Of a stretch of DNA of 64,000 nt, positions 3,107 to 53,912 are shown in pieces. The notes below the pieces were generated by a model, which saw nothing but the letters and a program-made list of their open reading frames with translations, did no database searches and was not told the origin of the DNA. The stretch is from assembly GCF_003018255.1 (NCBI RefSeq), contig NZ_CP027440.1; one strand, written 5' to 3'. Positions within the stretch are counted from its first letter, which is position 1; every line of letters starts with the position of its first letter. Source of the stretch: Escherichia coli (GTDB taxonomy: Bacteria; Pseudomonadota; Gammaproteobacteria; Enterobacterales; Enterobacteriaceae). The position numbers were made by a program, and so were the translations under genes.

Positions 3107-4093
3107 ATGAAATTACGCTCTGTAACCTACGCATTATTCATTGCTGGCCTGGCTGCATTTAGTACATCTTCACTGGCGGCGCAATCTTTACGTTTCGGTT
3201 ATGAAACCTCACAAACCGACTCGCAACATATTGCGGCGAAAAAATTCAATGATTTATTGCAGGAGAGAACCAAAGGCGAGCTGAAATTAAAACTGTTCCC
3301 GGACAGTACTCTCGGTAACGCACAGGCGATGATCAGCGGCGTACGTGGCGGCACCATCGATATGGAAATGTCCGGCTCGAATAACTTTGCCGGGTTATCA
3401 CCAGTGATGAACTTGCTTGATGTCCCTTTCCTGTTCCGCGATACCGCTCACGCGCATAAAACGCTCGACGGCAAAGTCGGTGATGATCTGAAAGCCTCAC
3501 TTGAAGGTAAAGGACTAAAAGTACTGGCCTACTGGGAAAACGGCTGGCGCGATGTCACCAACTCGCGCGCACCGGTTAAAACCCCCGCCGACCTGAAAGG
3601 GCTGAAAATTCGCACCAACAATAGCCCGATGAATATCGCCGCATTCAAAGTCTTTGGCGCTAACCCGATCCCGATGCCGTTTGCCGAAGTCTATACCGGG
3701 CTGGAAACGCGCACTATCGACGCTCAGGAACACCCGATCAACGTCGTCTGGTCAGCAAAATTTTTCGAAGTACAGAAGTACCTTTCTCTGACGCACCACG
3801 CCTATTCGCCACTTCTGGTGGTGATCAACAAAGCGAAGTTTGATGGCTTAAGCCCGGAGTTCCAGCAGGCGCTAGTTTCATCTGCACAGGAAGCGGGTAA
3901 CTACCAGCGCAAACTGGTTGCCGAAGATCAGCAAAAAATCATCGACGGCATGAAAGAAGTGGGCGTGGAAGTCATCACCGATCTCGACCGCAAAGCCTTT
4001 AGCGACGCACTGGGTACTCAGGTCCGCGACATGTTTGTTAAAGATGTTCCGCAGGGCGCTGAGCTGCTGAAAGCCGTGGATGAGGTGCAATAA
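3107..4093 (+). CDS. yiaO: TRAP periplasmic solute-binding protein
   Basis: 328 aa with an N-terminal signal peptide (…AAFSTSSLAAQ); DctP-like; sits in the TRAP operon. Confidence 0.85.
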   Translation: MKLRSVTYALFIAGLAAFSTSSLAAQSLRFGYETSQTDSQHIAAKKFNDLLQERTKGELKLKLFPDSTLGNAQAMISGVRGGTIDMEMSGSNNFAGLSPVMNLLDVPFLFRDTAHAHKTLDGKVGDDLKASLEGKGLKVLAYWENGWRDVTNSRAPVKTPADLKGLKIRTNNSPMNIAAFKVFGANPIPMPFAEVYTGLETRTIDAQEHPINVVWSAKFFEVQKYLSLTHHAYSPLLVVINKAKFDGLSPEFQQALVSSAQEAGNYQRKLVAEDQQKIIDGMKEVGVEVITDLDRKAFSDALGTQVRDMFVKDVPQGAELLKAVDEVQ

Positions 4094-19169: not shown

Positions 19170-19248
19170 TATCTCAAAAAAGCGCAATATTGAGATAGTG
19201 TATAGCAGGAAAGAGAAACTATCTCAAAAATCGCAAATTTTGAGATAG
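19170..19248. promoter_or_regulatory. Two tandem palindromes (arms CTATCTCAA/TTGAGATAG, 12-bp spacer, about 49 bp apart) immediately upstream of the Fic gene
   Basis: tatctcaaaaaagcgcaatattgagata at about 19170..19198 and ctatctcaaaaatcgcaaattttgagatag at about 19219..19248; the first begins 6 bp from the Fic start codon. Confidence 0.5.
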
Positions 19249-19251
19249 TTT

Positions 19252-19278
19252 AAAAAATGGCTGACAATTAGACAGCCA
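19252..19278 (-). terminator. Putative rho-independent terminator of yiaY
   Basis: Near-perfect 21-bp palindrome tggctgacaattagacagcca just past the yiaY stop, followed on the minus strand by a T6 run (plus-strand aaaaaa at about 19252..19257). Confidence 0.5.
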
Positions 19279-32483: not shown

Positions 32484-32659
32484 GTGATTCAGATCACAAA
32501 GATCCAACAAACCACCAAAACAAAAATGTGACATTAGTCACATTTAAATGCCATTTTTAGCGAAAATCGCCGTCTTGTTGCTTTTTTACACAAGCATTTT
32601 GTGATGAGCATCACGTCAATTACCTCTCTACCCCCTATATTTATGTGACCCATATCACA
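32484..32659. promoter_or_regulatory. Cluster of four CRP-like palindromes (TGTGA-N6-TCACA type) in the mtlA upstream region
   Basis: tgtgattcagatcaca (32484..32499), tgtgacattagtcaca (32527..32542), tgtgatgagcatcac (about 32600..32614), tgtgacccatatcaca (32644..32659); the mtl promoter is known to be strongly CRP-dependent. Confidence 0.5.
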
Positions 32660-32802
32660 CAAAAGGCCGTCGACTGGACAGTTAACCGATTCAGTGCCAG
32701 ATTTCGCAGTATCTACAAGGTCCGGCTACCTCTGCCGCCACATTAACAAAAAACCTCGGGCTTCCAGCCTGCGCGACAGCAAACATAAGAAGGGGTGTTT
32801 TT

Positions 32803-34716
32803 ATGTCATCCGATATTAAGATCAAAGTGCAAAGCTTTGGTCGTTTCCTCAGCAACATGGTGATGCCAAATATCGGCGCGTTTATCGCGTGGGGTATCAT
32901 CACCGCGTTATTTATTCCAACAGGGTGGTTACCGAACGAGACGCTGGCGAAGCTGGTCGGGCCGATGATCACTTATCTCCTGCCGCTGCTGATCGGTTAT
33001 ACCGGTGGTAAGCTGGTAGGCGGCGAACGTGGCGGCGTAGTCGGTGCCATCACCACCATGGGCGTTATCGTCGGCGCAGACATGCCGATGTTCCTCGGTT
33101 CTATGATTGCAGGTCCGCTGGGCGGCTGGTGCATTAAGCACTTCGACCGCTGGGTAGACGGTAAGATCAAATCCGGTTTTGAGATGCTGGTGAATAACTT
33201 CTCCGCAGGCATCATCGGGATGATCCTCGCTATTCTGGCATTCCTCGGCATTGGCCCGATTGTTGAAGCCCTGTCCAAAATGCTGGCTGCGGGCGTTAAC
33301 TTCATGGTTGTCCATGACATGCTGCCGCTGGCGTCTATCTTTGTTGAACCGGCGAAAATCCTGTTCCTCAACAACGCCATTAACCACGGTATCTTCTCGC
33401 CGCTGGGCATTCAGCAGTCCCATGAATTGGGTAAATCCATCTTCTTCCTGATTGAAGCTAACCCAGGTCCAGGTATGGGCGTGCTGCTGGCGTACATGTT
33501 CTTTGGTCGTGGCAGTGCTAAACAATCTGCGGGCGGTGCGGCAATCATCCACTTCCTGGGTGGTATCCACGAAATTTACTTCCCGTATGTGTTGATGAAT
33601 CCGCGTCTGATCCTGGCCGTTATCCTCGGCGGTATGACTGGCGTGTTCACGCTGACTATCCTGGGCGGTGGTCTGGTTTCTCCGGCATCTCCGGGTTCTA
33701 TCCTTGCTGTACTGGCGATGACACCAAAAGGTGCTTATTTCGCTAACATCGCAGGTGTGTGTGCGGCGATGGCTGTCTCCTTCGTTGTCTCTGCCATTCT
33801 GCTGAAAACCAGCAAAGTGAAAGAAGAAGATGATATTGAAGCAGCAACTCGTCGTATGCAGGACATGAAAGCTGAGTCTAAAGGTGCGTCTCCGCTGTCT
33901 GCGGGCGATGTGACTAACGACCTGAGCCACGTACGTAAAATCATCGTTGCCTGTGACGCCGGTATGGGTTCCAGTGCGATGGGCGCAGGTGTGCTGCGTA
34001 AGAAAATTCAGGATGCAGGTCTGTCGCAGATTTCGGTCACTAACAGCGCGATCAACAACCTGCCGCCAGATGTGGACCTGGTCATCACTCACCGTGACCT
34101 GACCGAACGCGCTATGCGCCAGGTTCCGCAGGCACAGCATATTTCGCTGACCAACTTCCTCGACAGCGGCTTGTACACCAGCCTGACCGAACGTCTGGTT
34201 GCTGCCCAGCGCCATACTGAAAACGAAGTAAAAGTGAAAGACAGTCTGAAAGACAGCTTTGACGATTCCAGTGCTAACCTGTTCAAGCTAGGCGCGGAGA
34301 ACATCTTCCTCGGTCGCAAAGCGGCCACCAAAGAAGAAGCGATTCGTTTTGCTGGCGAGCAGCTGGTGAAAGGCGGTTACGTTGAGCCAGAATACGTTCA
34401 GGCGATGCTGGATCGTGAAAAACTGACCCCGACTTATCTGGGTGAGTCTATCGCGGTGCCACACGGTACGGTTGAAGCAAAAGATCGCGTACTGAAAACG
34501 GGCGTGGTGTTCTGCCAGTACCCGGAAGGCGTGCGCTTCGGTGAAGAAGAAGATGACATTGCCCGTCTGGTGATTGGTATTGCTGCCCGTAACAACGAGC
34601 ACATTCAGGTTATCACCAGCCTGACCAATGCACTGGATGATGAATCCGTCATCGAGCGTCTGGCACACACCACCAGCGTGGATGAAGTGCTGGAACTGCT
34701 GGCAGGTCGTAAGTAA
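32803..34716 (+). CDS. mtlA: PTS mannitol-specific EIICBA component
   Basis: 637 aa; membrane EIIC domain followed by EIIB and EIIA domains. Confidence 0.9.
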   Translation: MSSDIKIKVQSFGRFLSNMVMPNIGAFIAWGIITALFIPTGWLPNETLAKLVGPMITYLLPLLIGYTGGKLVGGERGGVVGAITTMGVIVGADMPMFLGSMIAGPLGGWCIKHFDRWVDGKIKSGFEMLVNNFSAGIIGMILAILAFLGIGPIVEALSKMLAAGVNFMVVHDMLPLASIFVEPAKILFLNNAINHGIFSPLGIQQSHELGKSIFFLIEANPGPGMGVLLAYMFFGRGSAKQSAGGAAIIHFLGGIHEIYFPYVLMNPRLILAVILGGMTGVFTLTILGGGLVSPASPGSILAVLAMTPKGAYFANIAGVCAAMAVSFVVSAILLKTSKVKEEDDIEAATRRMQDMKAESKGASPLSAGDVTNDLSHVRKIIVACDAGMGSSAMGAGVLRKKIQDAGLSQISVTNSAINNLPPDVDLVITHRDLTERAMRQVPQAQHISLTNFLDSGLYTSLTERLVAAQRHTENEVKVKDSLKDSFDDSSANLFKLGAENIFLGRKAATKEEAIRFAGEQLVKGGYVEPEYVQAMLDREKLTPTYLGESIAVPHGTVEAKDRVLKTGVVFCQYPEGVRFGEEEDDIARLVIGIAARNNEHIQVITSLTNALDDESVIERLAHTTSVDEVLELLAGRK

Positions 34717-34739
34717 TACAATCTCACCCTCTCCACATG

Positions 34740-35040
<301 letters not shown>

Positions 35041-35080
35041 CCAGCCCTCTCGGGTAAAAACATTGATGAAGGTTAATACT

Positions 35081-36229
35081 ATGAAAGCATTACATTTTGG
35101 CGCAGGTAATATCGGTCGTGGCTTTATCGGTAAACTGCTGGCAGACGCGGGTATCCAACTGACGTTTGCCGATGTCAATCAGGTGGTACTTGATGCCCTG
35201 AATGCCCGTCATAGCTATCAGGTTCATGTGGTCGGTGAAACCGAGCAGGCAGATACCGTTTCCGGCGTCAATGCCGTCAGCAGCATTGGTGATGATGTCG
35301 TTGATCTGATTGCTCAGGTTGATTTAGTCACTACCGCCGTTGGCCCGGTTGTGCTGGAACGTATTGCTCCGGCAATCGCCAAAGGGCTGGTGAAACGTAA
35401 AGAACAAGGTAATGAATCCCCGCTGAACATCATCGCTTGTGAAAACATGGTCCGCGGCACCACACAGCTGAAAGGCCATGTGATGAACGCCCTGCCAGAA
35501 GATGCCAAAGCGTGGGTAGAAGAACACGTTGGCTTTGTCGATTCCGCCGTTGACCGCATCGTGCCGCCTTCGGCTTCTGCAACCAACGATCCGCTGGAAG
35601 TGACGGTAGAAACATTCAGCGAATGGATTGTCGATAAAACGCAGTTCAAAGGCGCGCTGCCAAACATCCCTGGCATGGAATTAACCGACAATCTGATGGC
35701 ATTTGTCGAACGTAAACTCTTCACCCTGAATACAGGTCATGCTATAACCGCGTACCTCGGAAAACTGGCCGGTCATCAGACCATTCGTGATGCGATTCTC
35801 GACGAGAAAATCCGCGCGGTGGTAAAAGGTGCGATGGAAGAAAGTGGTGCAGTATTGATCAAGCGCTACGGCTTTGACGCAGACAAACATGCGGCGTACA
35901 TCCGGAAAATCCTCGGTCGTTTCGAGAACCCGTACCTGAAAGATGATGTAGAGCGCGTAGGCCGTCAGCCGCTGCGTAAACTGAGTGCTGGCGACCGTCT
36001 AATCAAGCCACTGCTCGGAACGCTGGAATATGGTCTGCCACATAAAAACCTGATTGAAGGTATTGCCGCTGCAATGCACTTCCGCAGTGAAGATGATCCG
36101 CAGGCTCAGGAACTGGCAGCACTGATCGCTGACAAAGGTCCGCAGGCGGCGCTGGCACAGATTTCCGGTCTTGATGCCAACAGCGAGGTTGTATCCGAGG
36201 CGGTAACCGCTTATAAAGCAATGCAATAA
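35081..36229 (+). CDS. mtlD: Mannitol-1-phosphate 5-dehydrogenase
   Basis: 382 aa from [17 protein letters not shown] (Rossmann motif); the ORF-track frame extends upstream into the REP array. Confidence 0.9.
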
Positions 36230-36816
36230 TGGTGGACCAGGCGCAGGACACCCTGCGCCCGAATAACAGATTGTCAGATATGCAGGCAACAATGGAACAA
36301 ACCCAGGCCTTTGAAAACCGTGTGCTTGAGCGTCTGAATGCTGGCAAAACCGTGCGAAGCTTTCTGATCACCGCCGTCGAGCTTTTGACCGAGGCGGTAA
36401 ATCTTCTGGTGCTTCAGGTATTCCGCAAAGACGATTACGCGGTGAAGTATGCTGTAGAACCGTTACTCGACGGCGACGGTCCGCTGGGCGATCTTTCTGT
36501 GCGTTTAAAACTCATTTACGGGTTGGGCGTCATTAACCGCCAGGAATACGAAGATGCGGAACTGCTGATGGCATTGCGTGAAGAGCTAAATCACGACGGC
36601 AACGAGTACGCGTTTACCGACGACGAAATCCTTGGACCCTTTGGTGAACTGCATTGCGTGGCGGCGTTACCACCGCCGCCACAGTTTGAACCTGCAGACT
36701 CCAGTTTGTATGCAATGCAAATTCAGCGCTATCAACAGGCTGTGCGATCAACAATGGTCCTTTCACTGACAGAGCTGATTTCCAAAATCAGCTTAAAAAA
36801 AGCCTTTCAAAAGTAA
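36229..36816 (+). CDS. mtlR: Mannitol operon repressor
   Basis: 195 aa, [19 protein letters not shown]…; position after mtlD. Confidence 0.85.
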   Translation: MVDQAQDTLRPNNRLSDMQATMEQTQAFENRVLERLNAGKTVRSFLITAVELLTEAVNLLVLQVFRKDDYAVKYAVEPLLDGDGPLGDLSVRLKLIYGLGVINRQEYEDAELLMALREELNHDGNEYAFTDDEILGPFGELHCVAALPPPPQFEPADSSLYAMQIQRYQQAVRSTMVLSLTELISKISLKKAFQK

Positions 36817-52367: not shown

Positions 52368-53912
52368 ATGTCGGTTTCTAAAAAACCTATGGTACTGGTG
52401 ATTCTGGATGGCTATGGCTATCGTGAAGAACAGCAGGATAACGCCATTTTTAGTGCTAAAACCCCGGTAATGGATGCACTGTGGGCCAATCGTCCGCATA
52501 CCCTGATCGACGCTTCCGGTCTGGAAGTCGGTCTGCCTGACCGTCAGATGGGTAACTCCGAAGTAGGTCACGTTAACCTGGGTGCCGGCCGCATCGTGTA
52601 TCAGGACCTGACTCGTCTGGACGTTGAAATCAAAGATCGCGCTTTCTTCGCTAACCCGGTACTGACTGGCGCGGTAGATAAAGCGAAAAACGCAGGCAAA
52701 GCAGTTCACATTATGGGTCTGCTCTCCGCAGGTGGTGTACACAGCCACGAAGATCACATCATGGCGATGGTAGAACTGGCAGCTGAACGCGGCGCAGAAA
52801 AAATCTACCTGCACGCATTCCTTGACGGTCGCGACACTCCGCCGCGCAGTGCTGAATCCTCGCTGAAAAAATTCGAAGAGAAATTTGCCGCACTGGGCAA
52901 AGGCCGCGTAGCGTCCATCATTGGTCGTTACTACGCCATGGACCGCGATAACCGTTGGGATCGCGTTGAAAAAGCTTATGACCTGCTGACTCTGGCGCAG
53001 GGCGAGTTCCAGGCCGATACCGCCGTTGCTGGTTTGCAGGCTGCTTATGCTCGCGACGAAAACGACGAATTCGTGAAAGCGACCGTTATTCGTGCAGAAG
53101 GTCAGCCAGACGCGGCAATGGAAGACGGCGATGCGCTGATTTTCATGAACTTCCGTGCTGACCGTGCACGTGAAATCACTCGTGCATTCGTAAATGCCGA
53201 TTTTGACGGCTTCGCGCGTAAGAAAGTGGTTAACGTCGATTTCGTGATGCTGACCGAATACGCTGCCGACATCAAAACCGCAGTGGCTTACCCACCCGCT
53301 TCCCTGGTTAACACCTTCGGCGAGTGGATGGCGAAAAACGACAAAACTCAGCTGCGTATTTCCGAAACCGAAAAATATGCCCACGTTACTTTCTTCTTCA
53401 ACGGTGGCGTAGAAGAGTCGTTCAAAGGCGAAGATCGCATTCTGATCAACTCACCGAAAGTGGCTACCTACGATCTGCAACCGGAAATGAGCTCCGCAGA
53501 GCTGACCGAAAAACTGGTTGCGGCAATCAAGAGCGGCAAATACGACACCATTATCTGTAACTATCCGAACGGCGACATGGTAGGTCACACCGGAGTGATG
53601 GAAGCGGCGGTTAAAGCGGTTGAAGCGCTGGATCACTGCGTGGAAGAAGTCGCGAAAGCGGTTGAGTCCGTGGGTGGACAACTGCTGATCACCGCTGACC
53701 ACGGTAACGCTGAGCAGATGCGCGATCCGGCAACGGGTCAGGCACACACGGCACATACCAACCTGCCAGTTCCGCTGATTTACGTTGGCGATAAGAACGT
53801 GAAAGCGGTTGAAGGCGGCAAACTTTCTGATATCGCGCCGACCATGTTGTCGCTGATGGGTATGGAAATCCCGCAAGAGATGACTGGTAAGCCGCTGTTC
53901 ATCGTGGAATAA
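52368..53912 (+). CDS. gpmM: 2,3-bisphosphoglycerate-independent phosphoglycerate mutase
   Basis: 514 aa from [19 protein letters not shown]… (GAGG RBS); the ORF-track frame extends 48 codons upstream. Confidence 0.9.

Follow-up and report, generated by a model that had tools for sequence, protein, structure and literature searches.

The CRP-site array upstream of mtlA in Escherichia coli corresponds to the published five-site mtl operator and keeps its MtlR-docking spacing

A cluster of CRP-type palindromes precedes the mannitol operon in the Escherichia coli DNA analyzed here (a stretch of 64,000 nucleotides, referred to as the window), and the question is whether the sites serve catabolite activation alone or have a further function that depends on how they are spaced. 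The genes are arranged as in E. coli K-12, with yibH and yibI on the minus strand followed by mtlA, mtlD, and mtlR on the plus strand (RefSeq annotation of an identical locus), and the palindromes sit in the 536-bp intergenic region shared by the divergent yibI and mtlA. With up to one mismatch allowed, TGTGA-N6-TCACA occurs exactly four times in the 64-kb window, and all four matches fall at 32483-32659 (Table 1). A sequence-only reading of this DNA had picked out four such sites by eye, and all four were recovered, three with perfect cores and one with a single mismatch; the span that it gave ends at the correct base and begins one base late, at 32484. The same reading put the centers 43-73 bp apart, of which the upper value is right and the lower is not (the measured spacings are 44, 73, and 44 bp), and placed the sites 150-320 bp before the start of mtlA, which agrees with measured distances from center to ATG (32803) of 312.5 bp for CRP2, 268.5 bp for CRP3, 195.5 bp for CRP4, and 151.5 bp for CRP5.

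Dinucleotide shuffles of the window lead one to expect 1.76 core matches, scattered over 64 kb. None of 1000 first-order Markov simulations placed more than two matches in any 200-bp span, and the Poisson upper bound on finding four within any 200 bp of the window is ~3e-6, so the array is indeed as unusually dense as had been remarked. A weight-matrix scan for CRP, a check that had been named beforehand, ranks the four palindromes first, second, fourth, and seventh among the ~64,000 window positions, with scores of 20.3 bits (CRP5, the best in the window), 19.7 bits (CRP3), 13.9 bits (CRP4), and 12.9 bits; the matrix is symmetric and was built for this analysis from 17 classical sites, which themselves score 3.8-18.4 bits. 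A fifth and weaker site, CRP1, scores 10.7 bits by matrix (32437-32458, rank 10), and all five sites are found within the top 10 matrix scores of the window. Judged by these properties of the sequence, the four palindromes are genuine CRP sites, namely CRP2-CRP5 of the mtl promoter. Four other matrix matches were recorded at 19236-19257, 52554-52575, 24709-24730, and 1187-1208 (12.7-14.0 bits); none of them stands out because such scores are close to that of the best match in shuffled sequence (mean maximum 13.9). A GATC, the Dam methylation site, overlaps the right half-site of both CRP1 (32448-32451) and CRP2 (32492-32495), AGATCACA, and the same tetramer is present at CRP1 and CRP2 of several other Enterobacterales.

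Table 1. Features of the mtl operator-promoter and operon in window coordinates, with offsets counted from the inferred mtlA transcription start
Feature	Position	Strand	Sequence	Remarks
CRP1 (weak)	32440-32455		CATGC-TGTAGA-TCACA	center 32447.5 = -262.5; 7/10 core bases; 43 bp from CRP2
CRP2	32483-32498		TGTGATTCAGATCACA, TGTGA-TTCAGA-TCACA	center 32490.5 = -219.5; perfect core
CRP3	32527-32542		TGTGACATTAGTCACA, TGTGA-CATTAG-TCACA	center 32534.5 = -175.5; perfect core; 44 bp from CRP2
T-run block	32577-32593	+	GTTGCTTTTTTACACAA (TGTTCTTTTTTTACAC in relatives)	~-133..-117; inside the 73-bp CRP3-CRP4 gap
CRP4	32600-32615		TGTGATGAGCATCACG, TGTGA-TGAGCA-TCACG	center 32607.5 = -102.5; 9/10 core (TCACG mismatch); 73 bp from CRP3
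CRP5	32644-32659		TGTGACCCATATCACA, TGTGA-CCCATA-TCACA	center 32651.5 = -58.5; perfect core; 44 bp from CRP4; promoter-proximal, class-I-like
-35 hexamer	32675-32680	+	TGGACA	-35..-30 via the published CRP5 position; 5/6 consensus
Candidate Cra (FruR) operator	32681-32696	-	CACTGAATCGGTTAAC	between -35 and -10; partly conserved
-10 hexamer	32698-32703	+	CAGATT	-12..-7 from the inferred start; 3/6 consensus
mtlA transcription start, inferred	32710	+		CRP5 center 32651.5 + 58.5; transferred from K-12; 93-nt 5' untranslated region
mtlA	32803-34716	+	begins MSSDIKIKVQSF	mannitol PTS enzyme IICBA, 637 aa; open reading frame and RefSeq annotation
mtlD	35081-36229	+		mannitol-1-phosphate 5-dehydrogenase; annotation of an identical genome mapped onto the window
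mtlR	36229-36816	+		repressor without a DNA-binding domain

The mtl operator of E. coli has been dissected by Lee et al. (Nucleic Acids Res 2026; PMC13421365), where Ramseier & Saier 1995 is cited as the original study of CRP binding at mtl. Five CRP sites were placed at -262.5, -219.5, -175.5, -102.5, and -58.5 from an S1-mapped transcription start, with spacings of 43, 44, 73, and 44 bp and with only 7/10 core bases at CRP1 (PMC13421365); an earlier paper from the same group had also noted five mtl CRP sites (PMC5320558). The five centers in the window reproduce the published 43/44/73/44 exactly, and those of the four palindromes coincide base for base with the positions of CRP2-CRP5 in PMC13421365. 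Catabolite control of the mannitol operon, the function that the sequence-only reading had assigned to the palindromes, was therefore right as far as it went; what that reading missed is CRP1 and the role of the array as an operator for MtlR. The array and its role as an MtlR platform, published in July 2026, are already known, and regulation of this kind is of textbook level. That a reading by eye recovered four functionally important sites makes the locus a useful positive control.

According to the published work, CRP binds the K-12 allele directly in a cAMP-dependent manner and is essential for mtl activation, and chromosomal mutants of CRP2, CRP4, or CRP5 lose both expression and growth on mannitol; mutation of CRP3 has a mild effect, and CRP1 is dispensable for mtl expression (PMC13421365). 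MtlR, the repressor, lacks a DNA-binding domain and docks instead on pairs of CRP dimers spaced 43-46 bp. In EMSAs over a spacing series of 42-47 bp, an MtlR supershift was obtained only at 43-46 bp, and re-spacing to 44 bp of either the malK sites, which otherwise recruit no MtlR, or the 73-bp CRP3-4 gap created MtlR binding. Binding and repression are both lost in the MtlR variants R167E and L178A, and MtlR is sequestered by the dephosphorylated IIB domain of MtlA. MtlR-docking mtl operators of this kind were published for E. coli K-12, Salmonella enterica, and Vibrio cholerae (PMC13421365).

We consider it very probable that the region carrying the array is the mtlADR operator-promoter and that its five cAMP-CRP sites have roles both in activation and in MtlR-specific repression. 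The sites show the TGTGA-N6-TCACA core of the 22-bp, twofold-symmetric CRP site, the matrix score, the placement at a weak sigma-70 promoter, and the conservation of core rather than center that are looked for in CRP sites, and three of the neighboring pairs have the spacing at which MtlR docks (CRP1-2, 43 bp; CRP2-3, 44 bp; CRP4-5, 44 bp). Because the -10 hexamer is poor, RNA polymerase would need CRP for transcription of mtlA. CRP5 would act like a class-I site, and the far-upstream CRP2 and CRP4 would also be needed, with CRP3 needed less, probably via DNA architecture; cAMP-dependent catabolite control would result from activation by CRP. MtlR would dock on the CRP1-2, CRP2-3, and CRP4-5 pairs and not on the 73-bp CRP3-4 pair, and once docked it would block CRP-dependent activation. 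Relief specific to mannitol would come from MtlR's membrane sequestration on dephosphorylated MtlA, and in the presence of glucose, dephospho-HPr would displace MtlR from MtlA so that repression returns. Because a spacing of 43-46 bp constitutes an MtlR operator, the array would also carry mannitol induction and repression.

The simplest alternative, and in essence the one that the sequence-only reading had adopted, is that the array serves catabolite activation alone and that its 44-bp spacing has no role of its own. The CRP dependence of mtl has long been established, and contact between MtlR and CRP off DNA went undetected in the earlier study from the same group (PMC5320558), both of which would suit this alternative. 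We nevertheless regard it as very unlikely. The published supershifts and the gain of MtlR binding upon re-spacing (PMC13421365) speak against a spacing without function, and so does the comparison across species. A scan blind to gene content, run over one genome for each of ~100,000 species, looked for pairs of perfect cores spaced 34-64 bp and returned at least 120 loci, which make up an arbitrary subsample. At least 15 of the pairs are exactly 44 bp apart, and 14 of the 15 listed lie directly upstream of an mtlA homologue (identified by tblastn). These 14 pairs belong to 13 mtl loci, from Enterobacter, Superficieibacter, Citrobacter, Klebsiella, Pluralibacter, Brenneria, Pseudescherichia, a Proteobacteria MAG, Orbaceae, and Actinobacillus. 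The fifteenth 44-bp pair among the matches listed comes from a Bacteroidetes MAG, and every listed 44-bp perfect pair in lineages that have CRP sits at mtlA.

Because the scan selected one pair per locus, the remaining sites provide an unbiased test of the layout. The matrix finds 43/44/73/44 in 9 of the 11 other Enterobacterales loci (10 loci counting E. coli), and the right half-site of CRP1 is kept together with its 43-bp spacing in 9/11 other Enterobacterales. Where CRP1 does not score, as in Enterobacter cloacae and a Klebsiella sp., the layout is 44/73/44, and in Brenneria it is 44/74/44. In an ungapped alignment of 11 Enterobacterales species anchored on CRP5, the frequency of the top base is 0.93 in the core pentamers (37/50 columns invariant), 0.58 in the N6 centers, and 0.65 in the linkers. 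Across the Enterobacterales compared, the spacing is kept to the base even though the linkers have diverged to a top-base frequency of ~65%, which points to constraint on the spacing itself. The scan thus lends independent, gene-blind support to the 44-bp spacing as a signature of the mtl promoter and extends that signature to Orbaceae and Pasteurellaceae.

Two other peaks in the scan were considered and rejected. The peak at 46 bp does not reflect CRP biology; it arises from tandem arrays with a 23-bp period in one Tannerella sp. MAG (loci L075-L077), in which TGTGA-N6-TCACA palindromes are repeated. The peak at 57-58 bp is not mtl but belongs to a different intergenic region, next to MFS transporter and SDR dehydrogenase genes. 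This second perfect-core pair is present in at least six Enterobacterales (L025, positions 3736-3808, L015, L034, L044, L095, and L107). The Superficieibacter pair is flanked by a divergent MFS-transporter gene on one side and by a gene pair for an SDR dehydrogenase and an FAD oxidase on the other; our guess from the translations is that these genes are ygcS/ygcW/ygcU-like.

In a second alternative, the divergent yibI-yibH, the start of which is ~180 bp from CRP1, would be the main target of the whole array or, at the least, of CRP1 and CRP2. The shared intergenic location of the sites would allow such a role, and CRP1 is conserved though dispensable for mtl expression. Of the 13 mtl loci, however, only 2 (Citrobacter and Pseudescherichia) have a yibI homologue beside the array, and several loci without yibI have kilobases of upstream sequence and yet keep the full array, which indicates that the array travels with mtlA. 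In addition, the promoter scanner found no promoter pointing from the array toward yibI, and we know of no yibI promoter. On this evidence, we judge a main role at yibI-yibH to be highly improbable.

We give next to no credence to the last alternative, that the palindromes are chance occurrences, which the shuffle, Markov, and Poisson statistics exclude, or that their ligand is some other regulator, of the Crp/Fnr family or of the CytR type. Crp/Fnr relatives in other phyla use TGTGA-N6-TCACA as well, with many Firmicutes and Bacteroidetes matches among those listed in the scan, and GTTGCTTT between CRP3 and CRP4 resembles what we take to be the CytR octamer, GTTGCATT, but E. coli FNR prefers TTGAT-N4-ATCAA, CytR complexes combine CRP sites 52-53 bp apart with octamer repeats whereas the spacings here are 43/44/73/44, and this GTTGC-like word, the only octamer-like one, is not kept in other species (GTTCTTTT).

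Read as the mtlADR operator-promoter, the region is an allelic variant of E. coli K-12 mtlADR, with which it shares the locus, the five sites, the core pentamers, the spacings, the hexamers, and MtlR. Its design can be set beside three other systems. At malEp-malKp, the co-regulator MalT binds DNA itself. CytR also binds DNA itself, between CRP sites 52-53 bp apart, whereas MtlR, lacking a DNA-binding domain, reads only the 43-46 bp geometry. Like mtl, malEp-malKp has a dense set of adjacent CRP sites that together build a higher-order complex for activating a sugar-transport operon (Vidal-Ingigliardi & Raibaud 1991, as cited in PMC5320558 and PMC13421365); the malK sites differ in lying ~34 bp apart (PMC13421365). 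With CytR-CRP (deoP2, cdd, and tsx), mtl has in common a repressor that contacts tandem DNA-bound CRP dimers and so turns the activator into a platform for repression (PMC13421365). Mlc-EIIGlc (PtsG) resembles mtl in that the repressor is released from its target by membrane sequestration on a dephosphorylated PTS permease (PMC13421365), but Mlc, unlike MtlR, binds its own operators directly and uses no CRP array.

The promoter itself has the same -35 and -10 hexamers as K-12. Among the 11 species, CTGGACAG in the -35 region is invariant and GTGCCAGATT in the -10 hexamer region is conserved, and further conserved blocks are ATTCAGTGCCAGATT, which takes in the -10 region and a Cra-like word, and ACCCCCT at ~-77. 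The poor match of the -10 hexamer is as expected because the mtlA promoter is activator-dependent. The candidate Cra operator between the two hexamers, CACTGAATCGGTTAAC, fits what we take to be the Cra consensus, RSTGAAWCSNTHHW. A Cra site at the mtl promoter has been reported, with no coordinates given (PMC13421365). In the ungapped 11-species alignment, nothing apart from the CRP cores and the promoter is better conserved than the T-run block in the gap between CRP3 and CRP4; this block may be an intrinsic bend or may bind a nucleoid-associated protein such as Fis, both being guesses.

A generic sigma-70 scanner missed the mtlA promoter, and its only match, on the minus strand inside the mtlA start region, was rejected as an artifact. 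Two terminator-like scanner matches, one of which is the CRP3 palindrome, were rejected in the same way. Such artifacts are understandable because the promoter is weak and activator-dependent and the operators are palindromic. Rfam, searched at permissive thresholds, matched no RNA family to either the operator or the 5' untranslated region.

The intergenic region of the window has a match in 5404 of 5426 complete E. coli genomes and is 100% identical to that of two Japanese clinical isolates. The operator allele is rare, being at least 99% identical in only 3 of the 5404 genomes. Aligned to K-12, the intergenic region is 97% identical over its 536 bp, with 16 substitutions, no indels, and no change in any core pentamer. 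Seven of the 16 substitutions fall in the N6 centers of CRP3-5 (7/18 center bases, 39%), two of them in the center of CRP3. This rare allele is unlikely to be an import from another species, since where it departs from K-12 it does so in the site centers and not throughout the linkers. The genes mtlA, mtlD, and mtlR are intact; MtlA has two amino-acid differences from the K-12 protein, and MtlR has the K-12 sequence throughout (100% identity), with both CRP-contact residues, R167 and L178, in place. Because the cores, the spacings, and MtlR are identical and only the site centers and a few linker bases differ, the allele of this strain is likely to behave like that of K-12.

The site centers also vary among other E. 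coli genomes. Across eight complete genomes, 0/50 core positions and 15/456 other intergenic positions vary, compared with 10/30 N6-center positions, all ten of them in CRP3-5 (Fisher p ~3e-7 for the centers versus the other intergenic positions). At 4-fold degenerate sites of yibH, yibI, mtlA, and mtlR, the window differs from K-12 by 5.8%, versus the 39% in the CRP3-5 centers. At least 120 Escherichia-type loci came from a metagenome scan that used the invariant CRP3 flanks as anchors, and 114 operators represent 47 haplotypes. Among the 114 operators listed, the 6-bp center has at least 9 alleles at CRP3, at least 10 at CRP4, and at least 8 at CRP5; the CRP5 center of the window, CCCATA, is absent from these metagenomic operators, and its CRP3 center, CATTAG, is present once. 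In the 69 listed loci with a complete yibI-mtlA region, pi is 0.172 in the N6 centers of CRP3-5 (32532-32537, 32605-32610, and 32649-32654; 13/18 positions segregating), 0.060 at 4-fold degenerate sites (118/381 segregating), 0.014 in the linkers, and 0.0007 in the cores. The centers are thus ~3 times more diverse than 4-fold sites in these 69 loci (resampling p ~0.001), in a comparison that is post hoc, covers 18 linked positions, and uses a synonymous diversity that codon bias may depress. The rest of the intergenic region, as far as the sequences of its linkers tell, is under purifying selection.

If the excess of the CRP3-5 centers over synonymous sites is no accident of sampling, it is possible, though we hold this only tentatively, that the centers are a tuning knob under diversifying selection or, alternatively, a mutation hotspot. 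As a tuning knob, the centers could set CRP occupancy through indirect readout or DNA bending, or they could set the relative twist of a CRP pair bridged by MtlR; as a hotspot, they could gather mutations that arise from protein-kinked or palindromic DNA. A text search of the literature, which was not thorough, turned up no paper describing fast-evolving CRP-site centers, and the excess may be new. Should it be general, it would bear on how indirect-readout positions evolve in bacterial operators.

Several minor observations concern the surroundings of the array. E. coli GPEC1054 (NZ_CM142793.1) carries an insertion of an IS21-family element (istA) between CRP1 and CRP2, at a point equivalent to ~32464-32467 of the window. 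The insertion removes CRP1 and the yibI side and leaves CRP2-5 and mtlA intact, and this naturally occurring arrangement agrees with the published finding that CRP1 is dispensable. The mtlA-mtlD intergenic region (34717-35080) is 364 bp long, versus 229 bp in K-12, and the difference is a tandem duplication of a REP/BIME unit of ~135 bp; each copy contains a sub-threshold Rfam match to the REP-derived naRNA4 (34826-34887 and 34961-35017). For the DNA upstream of yibH (~27270-30310), the annotation of the identical genome lists an RHS-repeat core protein with a frameshift, a hypothetical protein, and an immunity protein of the Imm57 family. In K-12 the equivalent place is taken by yibV and the yibU/yibW pseudogenes, and this difference in content points to a variable Rhs toxin/immunity tip beside the mtl locus.
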